DNA from: Bacteroidales bacterium | Lineage (GTDB): Bacteria > Bacteroidota > Bacteroidia > Bacteroidales > UBA3824 | Length of the DNA stretch: 64,000 bases | Assembly (NCBI GenBank): GCA_017535325.1 | Contig: JAFXUC010000080.1 | Span: forward strand, 1,213-65,212 | Reading direction: 5' to 3' | Part shown: positions 3,277-35,668 of the stretch, piece by piece | Numbering within the stretch: position 1 is the stretch's first letter | Layout: every line of letters begins with the position of its first letter | Translations under genes and position numbers: made by a program | The notes under the pieces: model-generated | The model's database searches: none | What the model saw: only the letters and a program-made list of their open reading frames with translations | Told to the model about the DNA's origin: nothing

Positions 3277-3304
3277 CGGTGTTTTTTCGTATAACTTAAA
3301 AGAT

Positions 3305-7633: not shown

Positions 7634-8893
7634 TTATTCCAACATCCATTTCCAAGCGGGAATTACTTCAATTGTTTTTCCGTTAGAGAGTTGCACGGTT
7701 TCTTCTTCGTCAAAAGTAATTACAACCATACGTTTCATGGGCATAAAACCATCCAATTTTTCCAAAGCGGAAAGTTCGCGGCGGCGTGTCGTATCGTCTG
7801 AAATCGAATATGAAACCTGAATCCCGTAATCTTCATCGGGTATGTAAAAATCAACTTCGATGTTTTTGTTGTAAAAATATAACTTTTCTCCGTATTTTTG
7901 ATAGAGAAATACTGCGCACAAATTCTCCAACAATGCAGTCTGTCCGTCAGAAAGAAATATGCTTAAAAGTCCGTTGTCTGTAAAATAATGCTTTTTGACG
8001 GTTGTTTTTTCTACAAATTTTGACGTAAAATTTTCCAACGCGAACATAAGACAAGCATCTTTCGCAAAACTAATATAATCAATAACCGAAGTAACGGACG
8101 TATTAAACCCAGCAGTTTTCATAAGGTTTGCAAGTCTGTTGTATGAAGTCGGCTGTAAAATATTGTCAGCGAGCCGTTTAATAATCATTCTGAGCGGCAG
8201 TTCGTTTTTGATACGGTTGCGCAGAATTACGTCGCCGAGTATAATTTTTTCGTATAAATCGTTAAGCCAGCGTCTTTTGTTTTGATAATTAAGCAGTTCA
8301 GGAAATCCGCCCCAAAGCATATACGAAATGAATTGTTGCTGAACAATTAATCGTTTTTTACCGTACTGCCATTCTTTTTCGAGCGTAATGTCCTGTGCTT
8401 CAAGATATTCTCTAAACGAGTATGGAAAAATATTTCCGCTTATATAACGGCCGCCGAGAGTCGTCTGTATATCGCGGCTGAGCATTTTAGCGTTGCTGCC
8501 CGTTATAAAAACCTGATATTTTTGGTTTGCCAACCGCCGCGCAAAATGTTCCCAACCATCAACATTCTGAATTTCATCAAAAAACAATACGGGTTTGCAA
8601 TCATAAACCAAACTATGTGTCTGCAAAATCAGGTCAAAATCTTCCGCCTTGAAGCCCAATAAACGCTCGTCGTCGAAATCTATGTAAACGATTTCTTCTT
8701 TTTTTGTACCTTGTTTCAAGCATTGTTTGGCTCTTTTGTAAAGCATGTATGACTTTCCTGCCTGACGTATTCCCACGAGGACATATCTGCCGTTAGGCTC
8801 AAAATCGTATGGACGGTCATAGAGTTCAATGTTTTCTATAAGTTCCTGACCTTCTTTGATTAAAACCCTGATTATGTCTTTTGTAACTGCCAT
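7634..8893 (-). CDS. AAA-family ATPase with DUF4143-like C-terminal domain
   Basis: Walker A GIRQAGKSYM, Walker B LFFDEIQ. The C-terminal half is typical of AAA_14/DUF4143 proteins. Start set at MAVTKDIIRV (ATG 8893), downstream of a -7 box. Confidence 0.7.
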   Translation of the reverse strand: MAVTKDIIRVLIKEGQELIENIELYDRPYDFEPNGRYVLVGIRQAGKSYMLYKRAKQCLKQGTKKEEIVYIDFDDERLLGFKAEDFDLILQTHSLVYDCKPVLFFDEIQNVDGWEHFARRLANQKYQVFITGSNAKMLSRDIQTTLGGRYISGNIFPYSFREYLEAQDITLEKEWQYGKKRLIVQQQFISYMLWGGFPELLNYQNKRRWLNDLYEKIILGDVILRNRIKNELPLRMIIKRLADNILQPTSYNRLANLMKTAGFNTSVTSVIDYISFAKDACLMFALENFTSKFVEKTTVKKHYFTDNGLLSIFLSDGQTALLENLCAVFLYQKYGEKLYFYNKNIEVDFYIPDEDYGIQVSYSISDDTTRRRELSALEKLDGFMPMKRMVVITFDEEETVQLSNGKTIEVIPAWKWMLE

Positions 8894-12097: not shown

Positions 12098-13193
12098 GTC
12101 AGGATTATATGTCCACATTCCGTTTTGCGTAAGGAAATGCGGTTATTGTGATTTTTATTCCGTTAAACTCGGCAAAGATACACATTTGCTTTCGCTTTTC
12201 ACAGAAAAAATCATTAATGAAATTTTATTAAAATCTTATCTTTTTGACAAAGAAACAGTTGAAACGGTTTATTTTGGTGGGGGAACACCTTCAATTCTAC
12301 CCGTCAAAACACTTGAAACAATTTTCAGTGCCATTGCAAAAAACTTTTCGCTCGCAAAAACAATAGAATGTACTTTGGAAATCAACCCCGAACACGCAAC
12401 TGACGAATATTTCAAAGCGTTAAAAGCATCGGGGTTTGTCAACAGACTTTCTACGGGCTTTCAGGCTATGGACGATGACGGTTTAAAATATCTCGGCAGA
12501 AACCATTCAATATCAGATAATTACCGTTATTTGGACCTGTGCAGGAAATACGGTTTTGACAATTTTTCCGTCGATTACATTTTCGGTTATGAAACCCTGA
12601 CAGAAAAGGAAGTGGAAAAAAGCATGAAATTTTTTTGTGATGAAAAAATTCCGCACATCTCGGCGTATAGTCTTGGCATTGAGGACAATACACCGTTCGC
12701 ATTAAAACTCAAAAAAGGTCTTATCCACAAGATGGATGACGAGTTTTTTTTGCGACAGTTTTCGTTAATTCATTCTATTTTAGAAAGTTATGGCTATAAC
12801 CATTACGAAATATCCAACTATTCTTTACCGGGAAAACATTCTCGGCACAATTCCAATTACTGGAATTTTGTACCGTATCTCGGCTTTGGACCTTCGGCAC
12901 ACTCGTATTATGACGATTCGCGGTCTTGGAACAGCCGCAGATTGCAAGAATATTTTTCTCAAATAGGAGAGGGGCGACTTTTTGAAGAGCAGGAAATTCT
13001 GACAAAAACCGATATTTATAACGAAAAAATAATGCTCGGTTTGCGGACAAAACGGGGTCTGAAACTCTCTGAATTTCCAAAACTTAATTTGTCTAAGTTC
13101 AAGGATTATTTTGTAGTTGAAGACGGTTATTTAAAGTTAAACTTAAAAGGTTGGTTTGTTTCAGATTATATTATTTCTGAAATGTTTGAATAA
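12096..13193 (+). CDS. hemW: radical SAM heme chaperone / coproporphyrinogen-III oxidase-like protein
   Basis: YVHIPFCVRKCGYCDF (CxxxCxxC radical SAM), GGGTPS, HemN C-terminal-like domain. Confidence 0.85.
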   Translation: MSGLYVHIPFCVRKCGYCDFYSVKLGKDTHLLSLFTEKIINEILLKSYLFDKETVETVYFGGGTPSILPVKTLETIFSAIAKNFSLAKTIECTLEINPEHATDEYFKALKASGFVNRLSTGFQAMDDDGLKYLGRNHSISDNYRYLDLCRKYGFDNFSVDYIFGYETLTEKEVEKSMKFFCDEKIPHISAYSLGIEDNTPFALKLKKGLIHKMDDEFFLRQFSLIHSILESYGYNHYEISNYSLPGKHSRHNSNYWNFVPYLGFGPSAHSYYDDSRSWNSRRLQEYFSQIGEGRLFEEQEILTKTDIYNEKIMLGLRTKRGLKLSEFPKLNLSKFKDYFVVEDGYLKLNLKGWFVSDYIISEMFE

Positions 13194-13226
13194 ACGGTAA
13201 AAAAAGAGTAACTTTGCGGCATAAAA

Positions 13227-13259
13227 AAAGCACTCTGAATGTTGTTTTCAGAGTGCTTT
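13227..13259. terminator. bidirectional terminator
   Basis: AAAGCACTCTGAA-tgttgtt-TTCAGAGTGCTTT with a preceding A-tract. It sits between hemW (+) and the tRNA (-). Confidence 0.8.
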
Positions 13260-13260
13260 G

Positions 13261-13334
13261 TGGACCCACTAGGGCTTGAACCTAGGACCCCCTGATTATG
13301 AGTCAGATGCTCTAACCAACTGAGCTATGGGTCC
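13261..13334 (-). tRNA. tRNA-Met, anticodon CAT (elongator-like; tRNA-Ile2 with a lysidine-modified CAT anticodon not excluded)
   Basis: Reverse complement GGACCCATAGCTCAGTTGGTTAGAGCATCTGACTCATAATCAGGGGGTCCTAGGTTCAAGCCCTAGTGGGTCCA. It has a 7-bp acceptor stem, D-loop AGTTGGTTA, anticodon loop CT-CAT-AA and T-loop GGTTCAAGCC. No encoded CCA. Confidence 0.9.
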
Positions 13335-13397
13335 GATAAATGTTATCTTTTGTGAGTGCAAAATTAGAATAACTTTTTTAAATAAACAAATTTTTTT

Positions 13398-14003
13398 ATG
13401 AAAAATTTTGAAAAAATTAAAAACATTATCTTTGATCTCGGCGGAGTCTTATTTTGCCTTGACGGTGAAGAAACACTAAAAGCATTTGAAAATCACGGTG
13501 TTAAGAATATCCGTGAAAAATTTTCCGAGATAATTCTTTCTAACTGGTTCAGAGATTTTGAAATCGGAAACATCTCACCAAACGAATTTTTAGAACAACT
13601 AAACACACTCTGCGGCTCTAAATTGAGCATGGAAGATTTTGTTTTTTGTTGGAACGCTATGCTGACCGGCTATCCGGAAGAAAACCGCGATTTTTTGGAA
13701 AAACTTTCCCAAAAATACAACCTTTATGTCCTGAGTAACACCAATATAACTCATGTTGAATTTTTTGAACCAATAGCCAAGTGGAGGGACGGACTTTTCA
13801 AAAAAAGATATTATTCCAACGTCATTCATTTACGAAAACCCGATAAAGAGTGTTTTGAATTTGTATTGTCAGATGCAGAAATCAAGCCCGAAGAAACGCT
13901 TTTCATTGACGACAGAGCCGACAATATTGCAGCCGCTAAAACGTTAGGAATCAATACAATACATTTAACTTGCCAAAAAAATCTTTTCGGATATTTCAAA
14001 TGA
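13398..14003 (+). CDS. HAD-superfamily hydrolase (subfamily IA-like)
   Basis: Motif I IIFDLGGVL, motif II LSNTN, and motif IV FIDDRADNIAAA preceded by RKPD. Confidence 0.8.
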   Translation: MKNFEKIKNIIFDLGGVLFCLDGEETLKAFENHGVKNIREKFSEIILSNWFRDFEIGNISPNEFLEQLNTLCGSKLSMEDFVFCWNAMLTGYPEENRDFLEKLSQKYNLYVLSNTNITHVEFFEPIAKWRDGLFKKRYYSNVIHLRKPDKECFEFVLSDAEIKPEETLFIDDRADNIAAAKTLGINTIHLTCQKNLFGYFK

Positions 14004-15004
14004 GAGTTTTATTAATTGCATTGTTTTTAACGCTTACTTTCAGCGGTTTTGCCCAAAGTGATGCCGACAACCTGAAACAGGCTTTGGAACTTTTGGAAAA
14101 GGGCAGTTTCAACGAATCAAATGAATTGTTAATTCCTTTATATTCAAAGAATTACATGAAAGATTTGGTTTGCTATAACATCAGTTTGAATTTTTTCAAC
14201 CTAAACAACTTTACAAAAGCAGAAAAATACGCTAACGAATCGGTTGAAATGAATACGGCATATTCCATGCAAGCCGCTGTCATAAAAGGTAAATGCTTGA
14301 ATATCAAAGGGAAATTTTCAGAAGAAGAAAAATTTTACCGCAAAATGACGGATAAATATCCAAAAGAGTTTCTCTTTCATAACCTTTTAGCAGACAACCT
14401 TTTACGGCAAAAAAAATGCAACGAAGCATCAGAAGAGTTAAAAAAGTCGATTCTTCTTGACAGATTTGGCGCATCTTCGCATTACAAACTCGGCAAAATA
14501 GAAGAAGGCAACGCAAACTTTGCAAAATCTATGCTTTGCTATTATTATTTTTTGATGTGCAGCAAAGATTCAAGTCTACAGAAAGAAACAATATTATCAA
14601 TAGCGAAAATAATGAATTTTAACGAATTTGACAGAGTGATTTCAGAGAAAACTTCAAATGAAAATATTTCATTAGAGGAGATAAATATGAGTTCGTTAAT
14701 GTTTTTTTTAACAGACTTAGAAAAAATTTCTTTAAACGATTCTCTGCCAAACTTACAAAAATTTGTAAAAAATTCGAGACGTTTTTTGGAAGATGTAGCC
14801 GTTATGGGGTTAACTCATAGAAAAACAGGATATTTTTATGAGGATTTTTATGTTGATTTCTTTGCTAAACTTATGGAAAACAATCTGTTAGATACGTTTT
14901 TGTATTATTGTCTGATAAAGATTTATCCGAATGTATCCGAAGAAATTCACGGCGTCACCAAAGAAAAAATGCTGAAATTTGCGGAAATTTTGGAAGAAAA
15001 TTAA
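14000..15004 (+). CDS. secreted TPR-like hypothetical protein
   Basis: ATGA overlap with the HAD stop. Signal peptide MRVLLIALFLTLTFSGFAQS. Helical-repeat character. Confidence 0.55.
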   Translation: MRVLLIALFLTLTFSGFAQSDADNLKQALELLEKGSFNESNELLIPLYSKNYMKDLVCYNISLNFFNLNNFTKAEKYANESVEMNTAYSMQAAVIKGKCLNIKGKFSEEEKFYRKMTDKYPKEFLFHNLLADNLLRQKKCNEASEELKKSILLDRFGASSHYKLGKIEEGNANFAKSMLCYYYFLMCSKDSSLQKETILSIAKIMNFNEFDRVISEKTSNENISLEEINMSSLMFFLTDLEKISLNDSLPNLQKFVKNSRRFLEDVAVMGLTHRKTGYFYEDFYVDFFAKLMENNLLDTFLYYCLIKIYPNVSEEIHGVTKEKMLKFAEILEEN

Positions 15005-24010: not shown

Positions 24011-25381
24011 ATGCAGTCAAATAACACAATATCAGCAATTTGTACGGGACACGGCGGCGCGATAGCCGTTTTGAGGGTTTCGGGCAATGACGCTTTGAAA
24101 ATCGTATCAAAGATTTTTAAACCTTTAAAAAAAGGCTTTTTGTTGGAAAATGCCGGGGCGAACCGCGTTTATAACGGTTTTATCGTTGACGGCGAAAACG
24201 AAGTTGACAGAGTAGTCCTGACAGTTTACCGTGCGCCTCATTCGTATACCGGCGAAGATGTTGTTGAAATTTCCTGTCATGCAAGCGTTTACATTCAAAA
24301 GGAGATTCTTTCGCTTTTGTTGAAAAACGGCTCTTTGTTGGCTCAGCGCGGAGAGTTTACGCGCCGTGCCTTTCAAAACAAAAAAATGGACCTCTCGCAG
24401 GCTGAGGCTGTTGCCGACCTTATTGCCTCAAAATCCAAAGCCGAACATGATATAGCAGTCAATCAAATGCGCGGCGGTATAACCTTAGAAATTAAGCGGT
24501 TAAGGGATTTGCTATTAAAGTTTACATCTTTGATGGAATTGGAACTTGACTTCTCGGAAGAGGACGTTGAGTTTGCCGACAGAAGTCAGTTGAAGGCGAT
24601 TCTGAAAGAGACTGAAAACTATCTTACAAGGCTTGTAAAATCTTTCAAATACGGCAACGCTATAAAAAACGGCATTCCGGTTGCGATTTGCGGCGAGCCT
24701 AACGCGGGAAAGTCAACACTTTTGAACGCGCTTTTGAACGACGAAAGGGCGATTGTCTCTGACATTCCAGGTACTACGAGGGACGTTTTGGAAGACTTTT
24801 TAACCGTTGAAGGTACGCTTTACCGTCTTATTGACACGGCGGGAATACGTCAGACGGATGACAAAATCGAAAAACTCGGCATCGACCGCGCAAAAACTGC
24901 GGTTTCTAAGGCGGAAATAGTTTTAATCGTTTTGAATCCTGCGGGCGACATTTTAAAGCAGTTCTCAGAGATTATACCAGAGGATTTTCCGAGAGAAAAA
25001 ATCATCGCAGTTGTCAATAAATCAGATGTTTATAAAAATGCAGACATTTCTGTCCTGCCGCCTGAGGTAAGCGTCGTAAAAATTTCCGCAAAACACAAAA
25101 CCAACTTGGAAGAACTTTTTTCAAAAATTTCCGCGCTCAGTGTTTCGGATTTTTCTCAGGACGAGGTTATTTTGACGAATGTCCGTCATTTTACGATATT
25201 TACAGAGGCTCTCTTAGCAATAGAGCGTGCAGAAAATGCCTTAAATTCAGGGCTTTCGGGCGAATTTGTCTCGCAGGACATCAGAGAGGCTTTAAGAGCC
25301 TTTGCCGAAATCACCGGCGATGAGATAACAACCGACGAGGTTTTAGGCAACATTTTCAAGAACTTTTGCATTGGAAAATAA
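24011..25381 (+). CDS. mnmE: tRNA modification GTPase MnmE
   Basis: DTISAICT, G1 GEPNAGKST, G3 DTAGIR, G4 NKSD, and the invariant C-terminal FCIGK. Confidence 0.95.
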   Translation: MQSNNTISAICTGHGGAIAVLRVSGNDALKIVSKIFKPLKKGFLLENAGANRVYNGFIVDGENEVDRVVLTVYRAPHSYTGEDVVEISCHASVYIQKEILSLLLKNGSLLAQRGEFTRRAFQNKKMDLSQAEAVADLIASKSKAEHDIAVNQMRGGITLEIKRLRDLLLKFTSLMELELDFSEEDVEFADRSQLKAILKETENYLTRLVKSFKYGNAIKNGIPVAICGEPNAGKSTLLNALLNDERAIVSDIPGTTRDVLEDFLTVEGTLYRLIDTAGIRQTDDKIEKLGIDRAKTAVSKAEIVLIVLNPAGDILKQFSEIIPEDFPREKIIAVVNKSDVYKNADISVLPPEVSVVKISAKHKTNLEELFSKISALSVSDFSQDEVILTNVRHFTIFTEALLAIERAENALNSGLSGEFVSQDIREALRAFAEITGDEITTDEVLGNIFKNFCIGK

Positions 25382-25382
25382 A
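25364..25382 (+). repeat. attL-like copy of the direct repeat (functional mnmE 3' end)
   Basis: TTT TGC ATT GGA AAA TAA A. Confidence 0.75.
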
Positions 25383-25582: not shown

Positions 25583-26695
25583 ATGAATAATTTAAAAGAA
25601 CCCGTAAAATTACGCAAAAGGGAGCGTACAAAAGGCGGTTATTCGCTTTATCTTGACATCACTGTTGATGGAAAGCGTACATACGAGTATTTGAAACTTT
25701 ATCTTGTACCCGAAGTAAGCCGTGCCGACAAACTTAAAAACCAAGAAACTATGCGCTTTGCAGAGGCAATTAAAGCGCAAAGAGTTGTAGAAATTCAAAA
25801 CGGAAGATTCGGATTTGAAAACCGTAAAACTGCGAAAATCAATCTGTTTAAGTATTGGGACGTTGTTATGGAACGCCGCAAAAAAGAAGATTCTGTTGGT
25901 AATTATGGTAATTGGTATAGTGTAAAGACACATTTACTTAAATACGCTGGAACTGGTAATGTCCGAATGTGTGATGTTGATGAAAAATTTTGTCAAGGAT
26001 TTAAAGATTATTTAGAAAATGCTGTTACAAAATCCAACAAACCGTTAAGTCCAAACTCTAAGAACTCTTATTTCATTAAGTTCCGAGTGTTTATGCAGAC
26101 CGCCTTACAAGAGGGCGTTATTTATAAGAATCCGTGTGCAGGCATAAAGCCAGCCGCACAAAGCGAGGAAAAACGTGAGTATTTGACTATGGACGAACTC
26201 AAAGTGCTTGCACAAACACCTTGTTGTAAAGATGTTTTAAAACGGGCGTTCTTATTCTCTTGTCTTACGGGATTAAGGTGGAGTGATGTAAACAAACTTC
26301 GTTGGTCTGATGTGAGGGAACAAGACGGATTTAAGCGCATTGTTTTCCGTCAGAAGAAAACTAAAAATCTTGAATATCTTGATATAAACGAGCAAGCCTC
26401 AGCACTTATGGGCGACAGAACCGATGATGATAACCGTGTTTTTGTGGGTTTGAAATATTCAGCACAAATGAATCTCGAATTACAGCGTTGGTGTATGATT
26501 GCGGGTATTACAAAGAAAATAACTTTTCATTGTGCCCGGCATACCTTTGCGGTTATGTTGCTGACTTTGGGAACGGAGATTTATACTGTCCAAAAACTTT
26601 TGGGACACAAGGAACTTAAAACTACACAGATTTATGCAGATATTTTGGATAAGAAAAAGCAAGAAGCAGTTACAAAATTACCGCAAATTTTGTAA
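25583..26695 (+). CDS. int: tyrosine site-specific integrase
   Basis: Catalytic-domain motifs LTGLRWSDV (Arg I), HCARHTFAV (H-x-x-R) and LLGHKELKTTQIYAD (His/Tyr nucleophile). N-terminal SAM-like domain typical of Bacteroidota integrases. Confidence 0.9.
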   Translation: MNNLKEPVKLRKRERTKGGYSLYLDITVDGKRTYEYLKLYLVPEVSRADKLKNQETMRFAEAIKAQRVVEIQNGRFGFENRKTAKINLFKYWDVVMERRKKEDSVGNYGNWYSVKTHLLKYAGTGNVRMCDVDEKFCQGFKDYLENAVTKSNKPLSPNSKNSYFIKFRVFMQTALQEGVIYKNPCAGIKPAAQSEEKREYLTMDELKVLAQTPCCKDVLKRAFLFSCLTGLRWSDVNKLRWSDVREQDGFKRIVFRQKKTKNLEYLDINEQASALMGDRTDDDNRVFVGLKYSAQMNLELQRWCMIAGITKKITFHCARHTFAVMLLTLGTEIYTVQKLLGHKELKTTQIYADILDKKKQEAVTKLPQIL

Positions 26696-26882
26696 ATATT
26701 GGGGTTTGAGTAATTATTTTTCTTTGTTACGCGGAATTTTTAAACAGAGTTGATATTTTTTCTTTACTAAACAAGAAAAATAAAACTTTTTACTAAAATA
26801 TTTGGAAAATATAAAATAAACGTTTATATTTGCAGCCAAAACCAAATTTATTTTTTATTAATTAACTTTAAACATTCTAATC

Positions 26883-27482
26883 ATGGTAAAGAAATGTCAA
26901 TACTGAGGACGTACTTATGAAGGACGGAGTGATAGCCGTTTTTGTTCCGCAAAATGTAAAAACACCTATCACAACAAAAAACGTTTGGGCGAAATTCAAG
27001 ACCCCGAAAATGACGAAAACGAGGACGATGATGAACGTTTAACCGATTCAAAGCCGTTTAAACCCGTTGTAACGCTCCCTGATGATGACGATGAAAACGA
27101 GTATGAAGACGATTACGAAGACGAAAACGAGTATGAAGATGAAGACGAAGACGAGGACGAGGAAGACGAAGAAACGGATTCTAATGAAAGCGATTACGAC
27201 CAACTCGTAGACGAGTACAACGCTCTTGTTGACCAATACGAAAGTCTAAGACAACAAAATGCGCGGCTTGTCAAAAATAACTCGGCACTTGCCACAGAAT
27301 TAAACGCCGAAAAACGTAAACGCCAAAAAGCAGAAGAAAGGGCAACTTATTGGCAAGGTCAATACAACGAGTCGGAATCGTTTTTTCAAAAGTACATCAA
27401 AGAGAAAAAATCCGAACCCGAAGAGCCTGAAACGGAAGATAATGAGGGTGAAGATGATTATGGGTTACACCTTTTCGATTAA
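26883..27482 (+). pseudogene. zinc-ribbon plus poly-acidic plus coiled-coil protein, interrupted by an in-frame TGA at codon 8
   Basis: ATG 26883 sits downstream of a TAtaTTTG box (26825..26832). It reads MVKKCQY-TGA(26904..26906)-GRTYEGRSDSRFCSAKCKNTYHNKKR and is in frame with the track ORF 26985..27482 (TTG start). The stop occupies the second Cys position of a CxxC-x12-CxxxC ribbon. Confidence 0.6.
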
Positions 27483-27491
27483 CGTTTTTAG

Positions 27492-27510
27492 GGCGGCTGA
27501 AAATGCCGCC
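27492..27510 (+). terminator. rho-independent terminator
   Basis: GGCGGC-tgaaaat-GCCGCC followed by TTTTTCTTTT. Confidence 0.7.
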
Positions 27511-27577
27511 TTTTTCTTTTTTGTAAAATAGGAAAAAACATTTATATTTGCCGAAAACTTTTTAACACAATATAGTT

Positions 27578-27763
27578 ATGTCAAAGGAAGATAAAAAAGA
27601 GATTATGCGACAGCGTAAAGCGTTGCTTTTGTTGATTTTAGAGCGTACTAAAACACCAAAAAAAGCAATTATCGAGGACGCTTTGGACGAGTTTGTAAAA
27701 TCCAATCTTGACGTGGTTTCCGAAGAAGAAAGAAAGCAATTTGACAAACTTATTTTTGCTTAA
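27578..27763 (+). CDS. VapB-like antitoxin (by position)
   Basis: 61-aa ORF 3 nt upstream of the PIN gene. TAtaTTTG box at 27543..27550. Confidence 0.55.
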   Translation: MSKEDKKEIMRQRKALLLLILERTKTPKKAIIEDALDEFVKSNLDVVSEEERKQFDKLIFA

Positions 27764-27766
27764 AAT

Positions 27767-28228
27767 ATGGAAAGTCAAATTATTTCCGTCTATTTGGACA
27801 CCAATATTTTGGTAAATTATTGTTCGGGACAAGACGAAGATATAAAAATTGTCAAGTACCTTACGGAAGTTAGGTTTGCGCAAAATTTATATGTATCGGC
27901 TTTGTCCGTGGCTCAAACCGTGTCAATTATTCAATCACGGAAAGCCAAAACGAAAGAAACCAAACGTTTGGAAATCAACCGTTTGCAAGAAGTTTTGAAA
28001 AAAATTACGGTTGTCGGTCTGACAGATAAGGAAATTATTAATAGTTTTGAAATGTACAATAAGTTAAATTCTATTGACATTGAAGATACTATACATTATT
28101 TTGTCGCTAAAAAGATAAAGTGTGATGCCATTGTTACTCACAATAAATCTGACTTTTTGGCATTTGTCGGAAACGACATCAAAATTATAGAGGCTTTTAC
28201 ACCATTGATTAGACGGTGGGTAAAGTAA
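27767..28228 (+). CDS. PIN-domain (VapC-like) ribonuclease toxin
   Basis: VYLDTNILVNY (first acidic residue), DIEDTIHYFVA, AIVTHNKSDF. These are typical PIN acidic-residue positions. Confidence 0.75.
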   Translation: MESQIISVYLDTNILVNYCSGQDEDIKIVKYLTEVRFAQNLYVSALSVAQTVSIIQSRKAKTKETKRLEINRLQEVLKKITVVGLTDKEIINSFEMYNKLNSIDIEDTIHYFVAKKIKCDAIVTHNKSDFLAFVGNDIKIIEAFTPLIRRWVK

Positions 28229-28237
28229 GATTTTTTC

Positions 28238-28258
28238 AGGCGGCTATTTTAGCCGCCT
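28238..28258. terminator. bidirectional terminator between the PIN gene (+) and the repressor gene (-)
   Basis: AGGCGGCT-atttt-AGCCGCCT, flanked by T6 and T-runs. Confidence 0.75.
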
Positions 28259-28260
28259 TT

Positions 28261-28836
28261 TTAATTCTCTTTCAGTGATATTGTTTGTAATCTATTTGGC
28301 GATTTATGATACTTAAACCAAAAATCGGCAAAATCTTCTATGCCGCTGCGCTTGTAAACTATTCTGTATAAGGCTAATTTTAAGACCTCTTTATCTTTTT
28401 CTTCGTCAATATATGAAACTAAATCCTGAAATTCTCTTTCCGTATATTTACTCAAAATATCAAAAATCTGATATTTATCTATCTTTTCAAAACGCTTTTT
28501 TATAAGGTTGAAAATTTCGTCTTTGTCGTCAATAGTTATAGAGCCCATCATATTTTCTATAAAACTAAATGCATTTGCCAACACTTCTTTATATTCTACA
28601 TTCAGTAGTATATTTGTATTTTTCTGTAACAATGTTTTAGGCGTGTTTGTGTCATCAAAAAAGACATCAACAGGAACATTAAAAAATTTTGATAATCGTT
28701 CCAAATATTCAGACGATATTTTATTATTATTAATAGCCTTATATAATCCCGCATCAGTTATGCCGATTTCATTACATAAATCTTTGAATTTTATGTTTTT
28801 TCCCTCGCAAAGGGTTTTTATTATGCCTAAATTCAT
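28261..28836 (-). CDS. XRE-family HTH repressor (cI-like) with a C-terminal domain
   Basis: N-terminal KNIKFKDLCNEIGITDAGLYKAINNNKISSEYLERLSKFFNVPVDVFF is an HTH_3/XRE motif. Divergent from a Cro-like gene. Confidence 0.75.
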   Translation of the reverse strand: MNLGIIKTLCEGKNIKFKDLCNEIGITDAGLYKAINNNKISSEYLERLSKFFNVPVDVFFDDTNTPKTLLQKNTNILLNVEYKEVLANAFSFIENMMGSITIDDKDEIFNLIKKRFEKIDKYQIFDILSKYTEREFQDLVSYIDEEKDKEVLKLALYRIVYKRSGIEDFADFWFKYHKSPNRLQTISLKEN

Positions 28837-28918
28837 AATTATAAACTATTGAAAATTAACAACTTATATTTTCCTTTCTGTTCTTTAACGTTTCTTAACT
28901 AATTTTTGTTTGGTTATT

Positions 28919-28960
28919 ATACTAACTTTAGTTAATTTTGCAACTAATTAAAGTTAGTAT
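28919..28960. promoter_or_regulatory. operator-like 12-bp perfect inverted repeat bracketing a -7 box
   Basis: ATACTAACTTTA (28919..28930) and TAAAGTTAGTAT (28949..28960). TAatTTTG at 28933..28940 lies between the arms and begins 40 nt upstream of ATG 28973. Confidence 0.6.
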
Positions 28961-28972
28961 AAATATAAAATT

Positions 28973-29224
28973 ATGGACAAAATTACAAATTTTTCTAAAC
29001 ATTTCAATTCTGTTGTGAATAAAAAAACACGCGCAGAATTAAGAAATAGTATTATCGACATAACGGGTATTAGTTACGCTGGGTTTAGGCGTTGGGTAAA
29101 TAGCATTTGTGAAGTCCCTAAAATTTATCATACCGCTATTGCCGAAATTATGGGAGCGGAAGTTTCGGAACTGTTCCCTAACACAAATAACAATTCCGAA
29201 GTAACAATTAAAAACGCAAAATAA
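28973..29224 (+). CDS. small HTH protein (Cro-like)
   Basis: TRAELRNSIIDITGISYAGFRRWVNS is HTH-like. Divergent from the XRE repressor. Confidence 0.6.
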   Translation: MDKITNFSKHFNSVVNKKTRAELRNSIIDITGISYAGFRRWVNSICEVPKIYHTAIAEIMGAEVSELFPNTNNNSEVTIKNAK

Positions 29225-29225
29225 A

Positions 29226-29501
29226 ATGGCAGTAAAACAAACATTTAAAACTATTGATAAATATTTCAATGTTGAAACAGGCAAAAAGTTTCGTGATGAC
29301 AAATTTCAGTGGCAAGCAGTAGTAACACTTATAGATAGTCAAGGTAATCACGATGTTGATGGCATTGAATTGTCTGATTTGATTGGTCAAGAAGTCAAAA
29401 ATAAAATCTTCATAAACGAGGACGAACTCTCTTATGTCATTGAACTATTACAAGCAGTACAATCGGAGGTTTCCAAATGGGAAAATTCATCGGCGAAATA
29501 A
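29226..29501 (+). CDS. hypothetical protein (element)
   Basis: Starts 1 nt after the previous stop. No recognisable motif. Confidence 0.45.
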   Translation: MAVKQTFKTIDKYFNVETGKKFRDDKFQWQAVVTLIDSQGNHDVDGIELSDLIGQEVKNKIFINEDELSYVIELLQAVQSEVSKWENSSAK

Positions 29502-29579
29502 AAAAAGGTGTTTGCCGCTGCAACGACAAACACCTATAATCAACTTAAATTATAAACTTTTAAATTTGAGTACAAATTT

Positions 29580-29831
29580 ATGGACGCAAAGATAGATAAT
29601 ATTATTGAATATGCACCCATAAAACCCGAAAAAAAATTTTTTCAACGTTTGAGGGATTTTTGCGGCTGGGTGCTGAAAGGCTCTTTGAAACTTTCGGGCG
29701 TTGTATTGCTCGAAATGTTAACTCTTGTAATTGACCCTTTAAAGTCTTTTCTCTGCAAGTTCCTTGCGGTTCTTGGAGGTAGGGACGGCGGGGTTTGTGA
29801 TATGGCTGTTTTTTTACTGCGGATTTTATAA
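29580..29831 (+). CDS. hypothetical protein (element), weak
   Basis: 83-aa ORF. An antisense ORF of similar size exists, so coding status is uncertain. Confidence 0.3.
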   Translation: MDAKIDNIIEYAPIKPEKKFFQRLRDFCGWVLKGSLKLSGVVLLEMLTLVIDPLKSFLCKFLAVLGGRDGGVCDMAVFLLRIL

Positions 29832-29843
29832 GGAGGTGGTAGT

Positions 29844-29993
29844 ATGGGTAAAATCTATAATGCAATAAGAGGTGTTTTTGCTCTTATAGGCTACTTTGTA
29901 GTGTTTTATCATTTGATAATATCCGACTTACCGAGCCTTATAAAGTACCTTACAAATGCGGTAAAGAGTGTAATAATTTTTTTAATCTATTAG
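29844..29993 (+). CDS. 49-aa small membrane protein, below the ORF-track cutoff
   Basis: MGKIYNAIRGVFALIGYFVVFYHLIISDLPSLIKYLTNAVKSVIIFLIY*. Preceded by AAGGAGGTGG (29830..29839), a strong Shine-Dalgarno-like sequence that is rare elsewhere in this window. Confidence 0.45.
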   Translation: MGKIYNAIRGVFALIGYFVVFYHLIISDLPSLIKYLTNAVKSVIIFLIY

Positions 29994-29996
29994 ACT

Positions 29997-30782
29997 ATGG
30001 CAGAAAAAATTATCTCAACCCCTACCCTTGATGATGATTGCGATATGATAACTTTCATTCGGGATAAGGGTGCGACATCGGTGCAACGTGGATTTGACTA
30101 TGATTCTACTACGGCGCGACAAGAGTTTACCGAAAAAAACGGCAAATGCGACAATAATCGGACATCGGTGCAACGGTATAGCGACACATCGGCGGCACGT
30201 AGCAACAAGCCCAAACCGCCTACCGATAGAGAAATACTCTCTCTGAACGCTGATTTGGTTAAGGTCTTAAAAAACGACCGCTTTGTAAGATACAGCACCA
30301 ACGGCGACTACCGTAATTATTTGAATTTCTTTGACAACGTCCCGAAAAACCTTGTTAAAGAGGTCAATAAATTGGGTATAAAACGAGCGGACGGACGGGA
30401 GTATACACGCGAAACCATAAGCCGCGTAGTTACGGCAATGAAGATTGAGCGGCGGTTTAAGCCTTTTACGGTGTGGTTCATCGGGATTGCAGTATGTTTT
30501 TTCTCTGTTTATGCAACCCTGAAAATCTCGCAGTTTGAATTTGATTTTGGCAGCGTAGGCAGCGGAAACGGCGTTTTAACAAGTTCTTTTGGCGGCGGTT
30601 ATACTTTGGAGGACATTGACAAGCATATTAACGATTTGGCAAAAGAAAACAGAGTAACGATTTATCCGTTCAGACGTAACAAAATTAAAAAAGAAATTCA
30701 ATTAAGCGGCGATAACTCGCTGAAAAACATTGAATTAATTATAAATAACAATATTAATGAATTAAAAACCTTAACAAAATGA
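29997..30782 (+). CDS. hypothetical membrane-anchored protein (element)
   Basis: One TM (FTVWFIGIAVCFFSVYATL). Internal repeat ATSVQRG / RTSVQRY. No family recognised. Confidence 0.5.
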   Translation: MAEKIISTPTLDDDCDMITFIRDKGATSVQRGFDYDSTTARQEFTEKNGKCDNNRTSVQRYSDTSAARSNKPKPPTDREILSLNADLVKVLKNDRFVRYSTNGDYRNYLNFFDNVPKNLVKEVNKLGIKRADGREYTRETISRVVTAMKIERRFKPFTVWFIGIAVCFFSVYATLKISQFEFDFGSVGSGNGVLTSSFGGGYTLEDIDKHINDLAKENRVTIYPFRRNKIKKEIQLSGDNSLKNIELIINNNINELKTLTK

Positions 30783-31060
30783 AAGGATTATTCATAGGGT
30801 TGGTACTGTTGGCGGCGGTTTGCATTTTCAACGCCGTACAAAACCATCAGGCGGTAACGAGAGAGGAGTTTACCGAAACCCATAAACGGTTGAAAATGCA
30901 AGTTGACAGTATTTTAAGGAATTGTGATTCGCTCAAAAGTGAACTTCGGGCGGTGCGCTGTAATACTGATACGCTCCGAGCCGGTCAAGAGGTCATTTTT
31001 AAGACTATGAGTGAAAACCGCGAAAAACGGTCATTGTTGGACTTTATAATCGGGAGGTAA
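30779..31060 (+). CDS. hypothetical protein with N-terminal TM and coiled coil (element)
   Basis: ATGA overlap with the previous gene. MKGLFIGLVLLAAVCIF, then a helical region. Confidence 0.5.
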   Translation: MKGLFIGLVLLAAVCIFNAVQNHQAVTREEFTETHKRLKMQVDSILRNCDSLKSELRAVRCNTDTLRAGQEVIFKTMSENREKRSLLDFIIGR

Positions 31061-31062
31061 TT

Positions 31063-31284
31063 ATGGACACAAAGAGTAAAGAATACTTGGAAGAGTTGGA
31101 TACTATTCTCGACATCGGACAACAGCAACGGAAAATTGCGGATATAAATTGCAATAATCCGAGTTACTATGATAAACTCAAATTACAGAGTTTTATACTG
31201 ATACGAAAAATTAATAAATATAATCATAAATATTGTTGTAAAAAATGCAGAAAGAAAGAGAACCAACAAGGCGGCGGGGATTAA
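31063..31284 (+). CDS. hypothetical protein (element)
   Basis: Starts 2 nt after the previous stop. 73 aa. Confidence 0.4.
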   Translation: MDTKSKEYLEELDTILDIGQQQRKIADINCNNPSYYDKLKLQSFILIRKINKYNHKYCCKKCRKKENQQGGGD

Positions 31285-31496
31285 CGCCGAGTCCGTTCCA
31301 ATATGATTATTTTGGACGGCTGCAAAAAATATCCCCAATAACGGCGGCGCAAATCAGCGGATTTTATGAAACGTTGAAATTATGTGCCGACAGAAATAAC
31401 TTAGCGAAACTCTTACAAAACGCGGATTTAATACCGTCAAACGGCGACAAAACGCGGATTTTGGAGTTAGCGGAAATTATAAAAACCGAAAATTAA
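31245..31496 (+). CDS. hypothetical protein (element)
   Basis: 83-aa ORF overlapping the previous one by 40 nt, so the start is uncertain. Confidence 0.35.
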   Translation: MQKEREPTRRRGLTPSPFQYDYFGRLQKISPITAAQISGFYETLKLCADRNNLAKLLQNADLIPSNGDKTRILELAEIIKTEN

Positions 31497-31513
31497 TTAA
31501 TAAAATAAACAAA

Positions 31514-31834
31514 ATGAATACAGATACATTAGAAATACTGTTAAAGCAGTTGATTTCAGAAGTACACGATTCTCGAATGGCGACAATAATATCACAGAAA
31601 GAATGGCTCAATACAGAGGAAGCAGCATTTTTTCTTGGTATAACGCCGCAATCATTAAACCAACGTGCGGTTGATAAGACAATCGTCTATTATAAAGGTA
31701 ATGGTAAATATCGGTCATATAATAAAAAAGAACTTATGGAGAGTTTTTTTGGCAAACAAGACCGTGTTCCGACCAATAGTGAAATAGAAGAACGAGCGGC
31801 GGAGGAACGACGAAAGAGAATGTATGGAAAATAA
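31514..31834 (+). CDS. excisionase-type / MerR-like helix-turn-helix DNA-binding protein
   Basis: EWLNTEEAAFFLGITPQSLNQRAVDKTIVYYKGNGKYRSYNKKEL matches the winged-HTH pattern of excisionase-family proteins. The terminator CTGACGGT...ACCGTCAG at 31840..31865 follows. Confidence 0.6.
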   Translation: MNTDTLEILLKQLISEVHDSRMATIISQKEWLNTEEAAFFLGITPQSLNQRAVDKTIVYYKGNGKYRSYNKKELMESFFGKQDRVPTNSEIEERAAEERRKRMYGK

Positions 31835-31986
31835 AAAAACTGACGGTGCTTGGTTCTACCGTCAGTTTTAAAAATTCTTTATTTGGCTGTAAAACAGCAC
31901 TTGATAGTTGATAGATTTTTCAAGTGCAAAGATAAATATTTTTTCTTGTTTTACAGCCATTTTAACAAATTTTAATAATATAAAAA

Positions 31987-33198
31987 ATGGCAACATCAAA
32001 AAATAAAAAAGACGAAAATTACAACGAACCCACACAAATCAAAGTGGAGCGTTATCTCAACAACAATTACGATTTTCGATGGAACACCGTACTCAAAGAT
32101 TGTTTCTACAAGAAGAAAGGCGAAGACAACAGTTGTTACCAACAAATAAGTGTTCCCAAGTTGTGGCGAGAACTGCAAACGCACGGTTTCAAGTATTCTG
32201 CAACCAATTTGGAATACACGATGGGCAGCGACTTTGTGCCGCAATACGACCCAATCAAAGAGTATTTTGAGGGACTTCCAAAGTGGGACGGCAAAACCGA
32301 CCACATCCGCAAACTATGCAGCCATATTGTATTGGTGGACGAAACAGACGAGGAAATTGAACGCTTAAACACTATGTTCCAAAAATGGTTGGTGCGCTGT
32401 ATCCGTTGTGCATTAGGCGGACGGCTCAACCGTGAAGTGATTATGTTTAAGTCCGACAAGCAAAGACTTGGCAAAACGGAGTTTTTTCGCTATCTGACAC
32501 GTTGCACCAATTTGAGCGACTACTATATGGAAAATCCCGAAATCGGCAACAAGGATGCCCTAATCTCCCTCACCGAAAATATCATCATAAACTTTGATGA
32601 ATACGACAAGTATTTGCGCGAGGGCGACCTACCAAAAATGAAGTCCTACATATCGCAGGACTCGCCAAAGGTGCGCGTACCATACGGACGTAAACAAGAG
32701 AAAATCAAACGTATATGCAGTTTCGTTGCTACAACCAATATTCCCGATTTTTTGAGGGACGAAACGGGCAACACGCGGTTTATCTGTTTCGACATTGACG
32801 GCATTGATTGGCGCGAATATACCAAAATGGATATTAACCTGATTTGGGGTCAAGCATACCACCTCTACCAACTTTCTTTGTCAGGCAAATATAATTGCGA
32901 AATGACCGACAGCGAAGTACAAGCCAACAACCTCAACAACCTCAAATACCTTTATCATTCATCAGAATATGAATTGATACAGAAGATATTTGAGCCAAGC
33001 GACAACCCCGCTGACTTTATGACTACCACCGACATAGCCGACTACCTCCACGACAACACCCGGTACAAGAATATCACCACAAATGCCGTAGGTAGAGCGT
33101 TGACCGCACAAGGCTATAAAAAGGTGCATAATAAGACGGATAATGCAAAACAAGGTTATCAAATTCGAGAAAAAAACCGTACTACTGAACTATTTTAA
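31987..33198 (+). CDS. VirE/VapE-family P-loop protein (replication-associated, helicase-like)
   Basis: PKWDGKTDHIRKL, Walker A-like SDKQRLGKTEFFRYL, Walker B-like IINFDEYDK, TTNIPDFLRDETGNTRF. Confidence 0.65.
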   Translation: MATSKNKKDENYNEPTQIKVERYLNNNYDFRWNTVLKDCFYKKKGEDNSCYQQISVPKLWRELQTHGFKYSATNLEYTMGSDFVPQYDPIKEYFEGLPKWDGKTDHIRKLCSHIVLVDETDEEIERLNTMFQKWLVRCIRCALGGRLNREVIMFKSDKQRLGKTEFFRYLTRCTNLSDYYMENPEIGNKDALISLTENIIINFDEYDKYLREGDLPKMKSYISQDSPKVRVPYGRKQEKIKRICSFVATTNIPDFLRDETGNTRFICFDIDGIDWREYTKMDINLIWGQAYHLYQLSLSGKYNCEMTDSEVQANNLNNLKYLYHSSEYELIQKIFEPSDNPADFMTTTDIADYLHDNTRYKNITTNAVGRALTAQGYKKVHNKTDNAKQGYQIREKNRTTELF

Positions 33199-33240
33199 TT
33201 TTAAATTACTGTAATATAGATAGTTATGGTTAATATATAA

Positions 33241-33280
33241 TCTATACTATTCTATACTATTCTGTACTATTCTATACTAT
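33241..33280 (+). repeat. four tandem 10-bp iterons, candidate replication origin
   Basis: TCTATACTAT TCTATACTAT TCTGTACTAT TCTATACTAT. Inverted copies of the core (ATAGTACGG) lie at 33312..33320 and 33372..33380, and AATAGTGTAG at 33363..33372. Confidence 0.6.
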
Positions 33281-33669
33281 TTTAATGCTTTGCAAAAGAA
33301 AAAAGTATGAAATAGTACGGATTAGAACGGAAATATTTTTTGTAAGTTGCTGAAAATCAACGAATAGTGTAGATAGTACGGATTTTGCCAAATTTCGCAA
33401 AAAAATCTTACAAAACATTTTGCGTAAAAACAAGAGTTAACATATTAAAAAACAGACAATTATGCAACCAAAAATACTTAAAAACATATCATTGTCCGAT
33501 TTTATAAAACTCCGTAAGATAATGGACGAAAAAGCGGAAAAGGGAGAAGAAATACCTTTATTATTTCGCTTAATACCTAAAATCAGACCGTTATTGAATA
33601 ACATAGCAAAGAAAAAAACTCTTTTTCTTTTGCAATGCATTGATAATAAACTTTTAATATCACAAAATT

Positions 33670-34596
33670 ATGAATATAACAGAATTAAAAAAATACGTAA
33701 AAATAAGTGATTTTATGCACATAAATCACTATGAGCCAACAAGTAAGAGTGGCAAATATCTTCATTATAAAAGTCCTTTGAGAGAGGACAAAAAGCCGTC
33801 TTTTTGGGTGGACATCGAAAAGGACATTTGCGGCGACTTTTCAACGGGTAAAATTGGCGATATTGTAAATTTGGCAGCGGCGTTTTGGCGTTTGGATTTA
33901 AAGGCGGCAAAACAAAATTTGGAAGATATGTTCAGGCTTGGTTCTTTTTCTTTTGCAAAGCCGAAATATACTTTTCAAAAGAGCAGCGCACCGACCGCAG
34001 CCACCGAAAGCAAGGTTTATATAAAACACGTTCAAGACATTCAAAACGCGGCGTTATTGCAGTATATTGAGGAGCGCGGTATAAGTTGTGCCGTTGCAAA
34101 AGAGTATGTGAAAGAGGTTTACTATAAAACTGCGGACACCGAAACGGCGCGTCAATATTTTGCGTTGGCGTTCAGGAACGACAAAGGCGGTTATGAATTA
34201 CGAAACAAATACTTCAAAGGCTCAACATCACCCAAAGACGTAACAACCATAAAAAACGGCTCAAAATCCGTACTGATTTTTGAGGGATTTTTTGACTTTT
34301 TGGCGTGTGTGGAATATTGGAATGGTAAAAACAAGATAATCCCCTACGATATAATTGTATTAAATTCGGTCAGCAATGCCAACAAAATCAATCTTGACAA
34401 ATACGATACAATAAAGTTGCTGTTGGACAACGACACCGCCGGACAGAACACCGCCGAACTTTTAACAATACAGTACAGCGGCAAGACAGTTGAAAACGTA
34501 ACAAAAAAACTGTTTGTCGGTGAGTTTAAAGAGTGTAAGGATTTCAACGATTATTGGCGAAAGGTCATAAAAAGCATTAAAAAAAATGTTGTGTAA
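33670..34596 (+). CDS. Toprim-domain DNA primase-like protein
   Basis: N-terminal YKSPLREDKKPSFWVD...CGDFSTGKIGDIVNL (degenerate CHC2 finger region as in Bacteroides mobilizable-element primases). C-terminal VLIFEGFFDFL...LLLDNDTAG is a Toprim E...DxD pattern. Confidence 0.7.
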   Translation: MNITELKKYVKISDFMHINHYEPTSKSGKYLHYKSPLREDKKPSFWVDIEKDICGDFSTGKIGDIVNLAAAFWRLDLKAAKQNLEDMFRLGSFSFAKPKYTFQKSSAPTAATESKVYIKHVQDIQNAALLQYIEERGISCAVAKEYVKEVYYKTADTETARQYFALAFRNDKGGYELRNKYFKGSTSPKDVTTIKNGSKSVLIFEGFFDFLACVEYWNGKNKIIPYDIIVLNSVSNANKINLDKYDTIKLLLDNDTAGQNTAELLTIQYSGKTVENVTKKLFVGEFKECKDFNDYWRKVIKSIKKNVV

Positions 34597-34732
34597 TTAT
34601 GATAAATTACATACTTTTGCACTTTGTATTTACTATGAATAAATAAGTAAAATTGGTGCTAAAATGGTGCAATTTTTTATTAACTATGTATATAACTGTT
34701 TGGTATTCAGTTGTATATGTAATGATAACACT

Positions 34733-34751
34733 TTCTGCATTGGTAAATAAA
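34733..34751 (+). repeat. attR-like copy of the direct repeat (displaced mnmE 3' end remnant)
   Basis: TTC TGC ATT GGT AAA TAA A. Reads FCIGK* but has no ORF upstream. Confidence 0.75.
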
Positions 34752-34774: not shown

Positions 34775-35668
34775 ATGGGAAAAATTCTGATAATATTTCT
34801 TTATTTGACGGTTTTCGGCATCGAACCCGATACTACTTCGCGGGTTTATTTTTCTGCGTCGCCTCAGGAGATGTCCGAAGCGGATTCCGCAAATTTGTAT
34901 ATGCCTTTTTCCTCTGAAAATGAAGGTGTTATCTTCACTGCTTTCGGTATCAAAGCGGAATATGTAAAAGTTAACCCGCCGGTTTATGACAGGTTTCATA
35001 TAGATTTGAACAAAGACAGGTTCAAGGAAGTATATCCGTGGCAGGTGTTTTTGCCGTTGCTTTTTTGCGTTGTGCTGATACTTTTGGCGCGGTTTTACGT
35101 CTCTGACAGCATAAGGCGGGTGTTTTTGGCGGTCTTTTACGACAACGCCTTTCAAAATGCGGTTTCGGAAAAAAACGTCAACGCCGACAAAGCGGGTTAT
35201 ATGCTTTTTATTTGTTACCTTGTTAACGCCGTTCTTGTGATTTGCGTCTGTCTTTTCCGTTACGGAAGTCCTTTCGTGGAAAATTTCGGCAGGGCGTTGA
35301 TGATTTTAACCGCCGCCGTTGCGGGATTTTATGTGATAAAGAGAATGATTTCGGGTGTTTTGTCCGAACTTTTCGGCTGCCGTGATATTTTTTCGCTTTA
35401 TTACAAACGCTCGTCTTTTATTTTTCAGGCGTTGGGAGTGGTGTTAACGGTCGTAAATTTCATAAGTTTTTATGTAGCCTCGGCGTCGGTTCACGATTTT
35501 GCCTTTTATTTTACCGTGATTTTGTGCGTTTTTGCGGAGATTTGGAAAATTTTTAAACTTTTTTCAATTATATTTGAAAAACGGTTTCCGATTTTTTATT
35601 TGTTTTTATACCTTTGCGGCGTGGAATTTTTACCCGCTGTTTATGCCGTCAAAATATTGTCCGATTGA
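34775..35668 (+). CDS. DUF4271-like multi-pass membrane protein
   Basis: Six or more hydrophobic helices. It lies immediately upstream of a hemD-like gene, a recurrent Bacteroidota arrangement. Confidence 0.6.
   Translation: MGKILIIFLYLTVFGIEPDTTSRVYFSASPQEMSEADSANLYMPFSSENEGVIFTAFGIKAEYVKVNPPVYDRFHIDLNKDRFKEVYPWQVFLPLLFCVVLILLARFYVSDSIRRVFLAVFYDNAFQNAVSEKNVNADKAGYMLFICYLVNAVLVICVCLFRYGSPFVENFGRALMILTAAVAGFYVIKRMISGVLSELFGCRDIFSLYYKRSSFIFQALGVVLTVVNFISFYVASASVHDFAFYFTVILCVFAEIWKIFKLFSIIFEKRFPIFYLFLYLCGVEFLPAVYAVKILSD

Follow-up and report, generated by a model that had tools for sequence, protein, structure and literature searches.

A 9.4-kb integrated element of a rumen Bacteroidales bacterium as a member of a modular family of candidate phage satellites

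The stretch of DNA analyzed, called the window in the following, comprises 64,000 nucleotides of a rumen Bacteroidales bacterium (GenBank assembly GCA_017535325.1, contig JAFXUC010000080.1, positions 1,213 to 65,212), and positions are given in its own numbering. An island of about 9.37 kb is located in the window between mnmE (24011-25381) and a DUF4271 gene (34775-35668). The GC content of the island is 28-38% for most of its length and about 42% in two 1-kb bins, and that of the flanks is about 40-45%. The island is a discrete integrated element with defined ends and with modules for integration, an immunity switch, and replication (Table 1). The best explanation is that rumen Bacteroidales harbor a family of small elements, phage-derived, integrative, and self-replicating, of which the island is one copy. 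A first-pass annotation, made from the sequence alone, had proposed a candidate phage satellite of about 9.4 kb with the gene order integrase, acidic protein, VapBC, divergent cI-like and Cro-like genes, a block of tightly packed small open reading frames (ORFs), an excisionase-like helix-turn-helix (HTH) protein, a VirE-like P-loop protein, iterons, and a Toprim primase. This order was real, with most of the genes confirmed by Pfam, and the size was that of a single unit between direct repeats. The VapBC pair, with a PIN toxin preceded by a 61-aa ORF, the small-ORF block, the P-loop protein, the iterons, and the primase were recovered at the positions listed in Table 1.

Table 1. Features of the integrated element in the window (TM, transmembrane helix)
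Feature	Position	Strand	Properties
attL core	25362-25382	+	ACTTT-TGCATTGGAAAATAAA; covers the final codons and stop of mnmE; direct repeat with 34730-34751
Tyrosine integrase	25583-26695	+	Pfam Phage_integrase 1.5e-22, SAM_5, Arm-DNA-bind_5
Zinc-ribbon/acidic/coiled-coil gene	26883-27482	+	In-frame TGA at 26904-26906
VapBC-type pair	27578-28228	+	61-aa antitoxin candidate 27578-27763; PIN toxin 27767-28228, Pfam PIN 2.3e-13
cI-like repressor candidate	28261-28836	-	N-terminal HTH (Pfam HTH_26/HTH_3), phrog_8 9.4e-13; C-terminal domain unassigned
Palindromic operator candidate	28917-28962		cI-cro spacer; inverted repeat I15, 21-nt arms, 90% complementary, flanks TAATTTTG motif
Cro-like gene (83 aa)	28973-29224	+	First gene of the rightward operon; divergent from the cI-like gene
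o91	29226-29501	+	Small ORF
o83a	29580-29831	+	One predicted TM
o49	29844-29993	+	One predicted TM
o261 (fam5)	29997-30782	+	Bitopic membrane protein, one central TM (residues 156-178); largest unassigned ORF (261 aa)
o93 (fam8)	30779-31060	+	N-terminal TM helix, then one long helix; Rz-type i-spanin-like architecture
o73	31063-31284	+	Small ORF
o83b	31245-31496	+	Small ORF
HTH protein, excisionase/AlpA-like candidate	31514-31834	+	Pfam HTH_17 E 0.0054, below cut-off
VapE-like P-loop helicase/initiator	31987-33198	+	DUF3874 tail; Pfam 8.9e-31
AT-rich origin region	33199-33669	.	26% GC; four 10-bp iterons TAtTCTaTAC 33238-33277; inverted repeat 33284-33303 / 33622-33641
DnaG-like Toprim primase	33670-34596	+	Pfam Toprim_2 2.1e-8; TIGR01391 8.4e-16; Zn_ribbon_DnaG 4.3e-5, below cut-off
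attR core	34730-34751	+	ACTTTCTGCATTGGTAAATAAA; direct repeat with attL core

Integration, switch, and replication modules

The att cores of the window element form an imperfect direct repeat, mismatched at two positions. The insertion site is the last 18 nt of mnmE, which is also the site used by L090 (related loci are designated by L numbers), in this case with a perfect repeat (18/18). The window integrase is 87% identical to that of L090 and 80% identical to those of L115, L124, and L131, and the integrase gene adjoins mnmE in L090 and L124. The DUF4271 gene at the right flank of the window element also adjoins L117, a near-identical copy. An attP junction resulting from excision of the window element would be expected to contain CTGCATTGGWAAATAAATTTACTTTATG. 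A 5.9-kb scaffold from human feces, L112 (GenBank MT837961.1), was deposited as “Bacteriophage sp.,” with nothing phage-like seen in the record, and contains at positions 2892-5665 an mnmE gene (52% identical) followed by a gene for an integrase 48% identical to that of the window. Integrases of this clade thus seem to target the 3' end of mnmE repeatedly, in the human gut as well.

The “acidic protein” of the first-pass annotation is not encoded by an intact gene but had been translated through a stop codon. The in-frame TGA is positioned at the second cysteine of a conserved zinc ribbon, which is CEYCG in the homologs and CQY*G in the window (MVKKCQY*GRTYEGRSDSRFCSAKCK versus MIKQCEYCGAQYKGRADSRFCSTKCK), and the ORF listing restarts the gene after the TGA at a TTG at 26985. 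Either a nonsense mutation or an error of sequencing may explain this TGA. Comparison with the family profiles by hhalign assigned the protein to fam17 with a probability of 99.5% and to fam11 with 80.7%. Between the zinc-ribbon and cI-like genes is a slot for variable toxin-antitoxin cargo: the VapBC pairs differ among the members, and L090 and L088 possess a different VapC at this place (NF047863, 4.4e-25). Near-identical GC-rich hairpin terminators flank the slot at 27490-27512 and 28238-28258 (AGGGCGGCTGAAAATGCCGCC and AGGCGGCTATTTTAGCCGCC). Despite the different cargo, L088 and L090 share the former with 92% conservation, and L087 shares 24 nt of it; the paired terminators could mark cassette boundaries. 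No match was obtained with the PADLOC defense-system models.

Of the divergent regulator pair, the putative HTH repressor was found again opposite to the gene for an 83-aa protein, and the cI-like gene was kept in all nine family loci compared. Homologs of the 83-aa protein were present in eight of these nine loci, with 36-80% identity. Its assignment as Cro-like comes from its position and from a weak HTH_3 match of the homolog in L001, whereas the window protein had no Pfam match of its own. The spacer between both genes is conserved in L004, L002, and L088, and its TAATTTTG motif is presumably the Bacteroidetes −7 element. No S24 peptidase domain was found in the cI-like protein in the Pfam scan, whereas the repressor of a tailed prophage, L113, contains S24; the S24-less repressor can be likened to Stl of the Staphylococcus aureus pathogenicity islands (SaPIs). 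The HTH protein annotated as excisionase-like did match HTH_17, although weakly and below the threshold. A 67% identical homolog is present in L115 and L131, together with the 80% identical integrase and an amidase cassette, and this co-occurrence supports a pairing of the integrase with a directionality factor.

In the VapE-like protein, the Walker residues G162-K163 are invariant in alignment A1. Its closest annotated relatives are VirE proteins of Flavobacterium and Cellulophaga phages (31-36% identity) and proteins of Cardinium plasmids (31-35%). The VapE homologs on plasmids, with 35% identity or less, are not discriminating. All 10 members examined have ACTATTCTrwA-type repeats of 10 bp, both direct and inverted, in the spacer between the VapE and primase genes (19-30% GC). 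In the window primase, the “CHC2” zinc finger at the N terminus (33670-33870) looks degenerate, with one of the four expected Cys/His ligands left in LHYKSPLREDKKPSFWVDIEKDICGDFSTGK.

Comparison of the right half of the window element with L117 separated the initiator from its surroundings. The identities were 97% for o261, 99% for o93, 96% for the excisionase-like protein, and 97% for the primase, but only 44% for VapE, and the iterons of L117 also differ from those of the window (CTGTTCTATT; VapE at 2102-3292 and the spacer at 3293-3614 of L117). In L134, which contains the same small-ORF block and primase, a 607-aa protein without a Pfam match (2917-4740) replaces VapE. A function of VapE as an origin-specific initiator is supported because VapE and the iterons were replaced together in L117. 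Judging from these loci, initiator and origin appear to form a swappable cassette, with the primase being constant.

Family members, module exchange, and excised forms

VapE homologs with 55-89% identity were found only in rumen Bacteroidales metagenome-assembled genomes and metagenomes, to which the family is so far confined. Sixteen related loci were read for the family comparison, and nine were compared for the cI/Cro region. The common order is integrase, zinc-ribbon/coiled-coil protein, an optional toxin-antitoxin pair, the cI-like gene on the minus strand, and the Cro-like gene, followed by the small genes fam10, fam7 (multi-TM), fam5, fam8, fam9, and fam6, and then by VapE, the iteron spacer, and the primase. 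The units are 7.7 to 9.4 kb long, with the exception of L090, a deleted 6.75-kb variant with a truncated VapE. Integrases were swapped among the members, some being directed to the mnmE site and others to a tRNA-Pro site: in L089, L110, and L111, the flanking repeats correspond to the 3' end of tRNA-Pro, and tRNA-Pro is located just upstream of the integrase gene in L088. The integrases of L115, L124, and L131 and the HTH protein of L115 and L131 show a frequent exchange of modules with amidase-bearing elements.

Excised forms were represented by three metagenome contigs, L004, L001, and L006, which run from the primase gene through attP into the integrase gene. L004 is a 9427-bp contig that begins and ends with the same 30 nt. 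In L001, a JGI metagenome contig, only element genes are present, and the first 77 nt recur at 8800-8876. The spacer between the primase and integrase genes of L001 is 79% identical to the right junction of the integrated L110 up to the att core and 89% identical to the left junction from the core on. This spacer was read as attP because its halves match the right and left junctions of L110 and meet at the att core. Family members therefore occur in circular form or, with less probability, in tandem arrays; this applies to relatives and not to the window copy.

Several loci are variants of the design. At 1-14875 of L124, two elements are apparently arranged in tandem beside mnmE. The first, a short unit, encodes a Bro-N protein besides the 80% identical integrase; the second, a small element, combines an amidase-fam5-fam8 cassette with genes for a Zn_ribbon_16/DUF6371 protein, a 608-aa P-loop protein, and an integrase of its own. 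The second unit has the design of the window family with a different replicon. At about 1400-7700 of L125, a region of about 6.5 kb contains HTH_3, amidase, fam5, fam8, and integrase genes but none recognizable for replication or virions, and other genes follow on the contig. L125 may be an even more minimal relative. In L132 (3594-10913), a fam8-bearing element with a 370-aa integrase abuts a PIN toxin-antitoxin pair and genes for CHAP, LPD1, and SNF2-helicase proteins, and these neighbors resemble the cargo of conjugative elements. Elsewhere in the window, the region 13000-15000 has a low GC content (32-34%) and is located next to tRNA-Met (13260-13334, minus strand), the single tRNA gene of the window; this region could be another insertion.

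The small-ORF block and its lysis-gene neighborhood

The seven small ORFs that fill 29226-31496, with an ATGA overlap at 30779-30782, had no Pfam or PHROG match. Three of them (o91, o83a, and o49) are 89-100% conserved in L118 and present in L134, and o73 and o83b are conserved in L117, L118, and L134; compared to L117, o83b contains 13 synonymous and 5 nonsynonymous codon changes. According to hhalign, the window-only ORFs (o83a, o49, o73, o83b, xis106, and o91) are unrelated to fam6, fam7, fam9, and fam10. The family of o261 is small, with 39 clusters among 1.84 billion representatives, and that of o93 comprises 73 clusters. Structure searches did not assign either protein: the AF2 model of o261 (pLDDT 61) had no Foldseek match with E < 0.1 in PDB or BFVD, and that of o93 (pLDDT 84, helices 2-23 and 28-91) had no meaningful match in BFVD.

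Gene neighborhoods were more informative for o261 and o93. L113 is a tailed prophage on a 39.6-kb contig with genes for an integrase, S24 repressor, TerS, TerL, major head protein (2e-60), and portal (1e-114). It encodes a homolog of o261 (P0047, 37% identity, E 4e-25) in the local order 149-aa multi-TM protein, Amidase_2 endolysin with an N-terminal TM, fam5 homolog, and fam8-like protein. The latter aligned to fam8 in hhalign with 92.5% and gave a weak match to the Rz-like spanin phrog_739 (7e-4), the sole spanin match. In total, fam5 homologs occur with Amidase_2 at nine loci, L004, L113, L114, L115/L116, L124, L125, L130, L131, and L133, and in those other than L113 the Amidase_2 gene is located directly upstream of fam5 or one gene away. 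Among these, L004 is a member of the window family that keeps the amidase; most members, including the window element, are without it, and neither an endolysin nor a detectable endolysin remnant was found in the window.

The statement of the first-pass annotation that the element contains no lysis genes was correct for the endolysin, but o261 and o93 are homologous to proteins that flank Amidase_2 endolysins, also in a tailed prophage. Its suggestion that the small ORFs might encode helper-sensing or capsid-redirecting functions was not borne out for the two ORFs that could be traced, which encode membrane proteins of this lysis-cassette neighborhood. The small-ORF block is best read as a putative holin/endolysin/spanin-like cassette that lost its endolysin in most members. 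A lysis function of fam5, fam7, and fam8 would follow from the gene neighborhood; alternatively, the membrane block may control the timing of lysis or act in superinfection exclusion. A phage ancestry of several modules is shown, as far as homology and gene order indicate, by the phage homologs of VirE and by fam5/fam8 beside an endolysin gene in the prophage L113 and at eight more loci.

Possible lifestyles of the element

The absence of virion and transfer genes stated in the first-pass annotation was confirmed at the sensitivity of Pfam and PHROGs: the window ORFs gave no match to relaxase, MobC, type IV secretion system, capsid, portal, or terminase, and no relaxase, capsid, portal, or terminase was detected at the Pfam level in more than 15 relatives. 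A relaxase or remote homologs of capsid or terminase proteins, which that annotation had named as findings that would contradict it, were thus found neither in the window nor in the relatives. Matches to small terminases were marginal, with phrog_2538 at 5.7e-4 on the cI-like HTH and phrog_3218 at 0.021 on fam10.

The best reading of these data is a helper-dependent phage satellite, a credible but unproven candidate to which we assign a probability of roughly 0.45. In the resting state, the rightward operon would be kept silent by the cI-like protein acting at the palindrome between cI and cro. Once this block is lifted, the integrase would recombine the att cores and thereby excise the element, assisted by the HTH protein and perhaps also by the zinc-ribbon protein as directionality factors. 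VapE would bind to the 10-bp iterons, and VapE and the DnaG-like primase would jointly replicate the circle. Late in the cycle, the four membrane proteins (o83a, o49, o261, and o93) would most likely act on the cell envelope, and the most likely route of transfer would be packaging into the capsids of a co-resident helper phage. This route is proposed because virion genes and a relaxase are both absent.

The similarity of the element to known satellites is one of layout. Like phage-inducible chromosomal islands (PICIs) of the SaPI type, it has a terminal integrase, divergent repressor and Cro-like regulators, an S24-less repressor, a variable cargo slot, its own primase and helicase, and an iteron origin paired in specificity with the initiator, and it has no virion genes. 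It differs from them by the missing homologs of TerS, Ppi, Cpm, and Rpp, the membrane module derived from a lysis cassette, the smaller size (9.4 kb), and the host phylum Bacteroidota. P4-like satellites are likewise integrative elements of about 10 kb with a primase/helicase replicon and a possible circular form. In contrast to P4, however, the window contains no match to Sid, Psu, Delta, Epsilon, or the alpha primase-helicase and no cos, helicase and primase are separate genes, and the regulation is of the cI/Cro type. The PICI/P4-like layout that had been annotated was found in the integrase, the divergent regulators, and the primase with iterons, but neither a packaging module nor P4 genes accompany it. 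The minimal marine satellites, namely phage-inducible chromosomal minimalist islands (PICMIs) and virion-encapsidated integrative mobile elements (VEIMEs), are also small and integrative; they encode an integrase, a primase/helicase, and an HTH protein of the AlpA/excisionase type but few or no recognizable structural genes, and Flavobacteria are one of the host groups in which integrated VEIMEs were detected (PMC9618062). They were recovered from virus particles, whereas the rumen family is known from sequence contigs, with no IMG/VR relatives of its proteins apart from distant VapE matches.

Several results weigh against a satellite. Its overall logic fits, yet every specific hallmark is missing, be it a packaging gene, a shared cos/pac site, a helper, or a particle. 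No homologs of TerS, Ppi, Cpm, Sid, Psu, or Rpp were found by Pfam and PHROGs in the window or the relatives. A search for a noncoding block common to phages as a cos/pac candidate was also negative, the conserved noncoding sequences of the family being limited to the integrase-proximal sequence, terminator, operator, and iterons. A comparison of the whole element by megablast and blastn with 50,697 phage records yielded only low-complexity matches to the acidic repeat and one mislabeled bacterial scaffold. IMG/VR contained no relatives of fam5, fam8, the excisionase-like protein, P0047, or P0050, and the VapE matches there were distant, with not more than 27% identity. A literature look-up of the sample accessions, asking if the circular contigs came from virus particles, gave nothing. 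Satellites are stated in a review to have no means of lysing the cell (PMC11389934), whereas L004 and several related small elements encode their own endolysin. The conserved lysis-neighborhood module is either a new satellite feature or a hint of a different lifestyle. Finally, the window copy may be inactive now, considering the nonsense codon in a conserved gene and the two differences between the att cores. The satellite claim of the first-pass annotation is supported in part: a discrete element, a switch, a replicon, a family, circles with attP, and modules shared with a prophage are present, but no hijacking gene and no shared cos/pac.

The first of the alternatives, a defective prophage remnant or domesticated island that is immobile in this genome and kept by the toxin-antitoxin pair, is unlikely. 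The in-frame TGA, the differing att cores, the VapBC addiction module, and the deleted variant L090 agree with it. Random decay, however, does not leave a compact architecture that recurs with different integrases, at different insertion sites, and as circles. Moreover, the integrase, VapE, and primase ORFs are of full length, and other samples contain the small ORFs with 89-100% conservation. L113-type tailed temperate phages of rumen Bacteroidales have homologous fam5 and fam8 genes beside an endolysin gene and share the integrase class and the repressor/Cro layout with the element; the L113 contig has at least 39.6 kb with TerS, TerL, major head, portal, and S24 repressor, none of which is present in the element.

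Next, and rather improbable, is an element without capsid or helper that excises, replicates, and lyses the cell by holin/spanin-like proteins and an amidase of its own or of the host, so that its DNA leaves in vesicles or free. The lysis-cassette module is the most conserved nonreplicative part of the family, circles assemble from bulk metagenomes, and neither genes nor sites for packaging were found in the window family; L004, L124, and L125 keep the endolysin, with no virion genes in partial scans of them. Most members, however, contain neither an endolysin nor an amidase remnant, the lysis role of fam5, fam7, and fam8 comes from the neighborhood, and the vesicle route is conjecture. We know of no precedent for such a design. 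It is also quite improbable that the window family and the amidase-keeping L004, L124, and L125 form a new class of capsid-less temperate replicons with a switch, replicon, integrase, and lysis cassette. If this were true, capsid-less replicons would spread by host lysis or vesiculation that releases amplified circles, without a virion of their own or a borrowed one.

Mobilization by an oriT alone, with relaxase and mating pore supplied by a conjugative transposon of Bacteroidales, has a similarly small chance. Bacteroidales are rich in integrative and conjugative elements and mobilizable units such as NBU1 (PMC11389934), and oriT-only islands have been proposed (bioRxiv 10.64898/2026.01.13.699239). 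In L132, the fam8-bearing element is located beside conjugative-element-like genes (LPD1, SNF2 helicase). On the other hand, no relaxase or MobC was found in more than 15 members, and all modules that could be traced are of the phage type, namely the cI/Cro switch, phage VirE, and the endolysin neighborhood. The nonreplicating Bacteroides unit (NBU) type shares with the window element the host order, a primase-like gene, and a tyrosine integrase that targets a 3' gene end; NBU1 also includes a primase gene. In contrast to the NBU type, the window element is without a Mob relaxase and without an identified oriT, for which the tools used had no test, and has a phage-type switch, an iteron replicon, and lysis-neighborhood genes. 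A microvirus (Microviridae), inovirus, or pleomorphic virus was rejected because there is no ORF of capsid size and no Zot-like ATPase and the middle module comprises only about 2.3 kb.

A satellite or hitcher-type variant new for Bacteroidota is a plausible but unproven description of the family. In the literature searched, no phage satellite of Bacteroidota was found beyond the marine elements integrated in Flavobacteria, and Bacteroidales are dominant members of gut and rumen communities. With its conserved modular design, excision, a replicon of its own, and no virion genes, the family is a concrete and testable satellite candidate. A membrane module linked to endolysins is not usual in satellites, and that of the family points to uncharacterized lysis proteins of Bacteroidales phages, fam5 and fam8. 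If the family does depend on a helper, the known range of satellites would grow to include a major gut phylum; if it spreads without a helper instead, it would be a new kind of mobile element.

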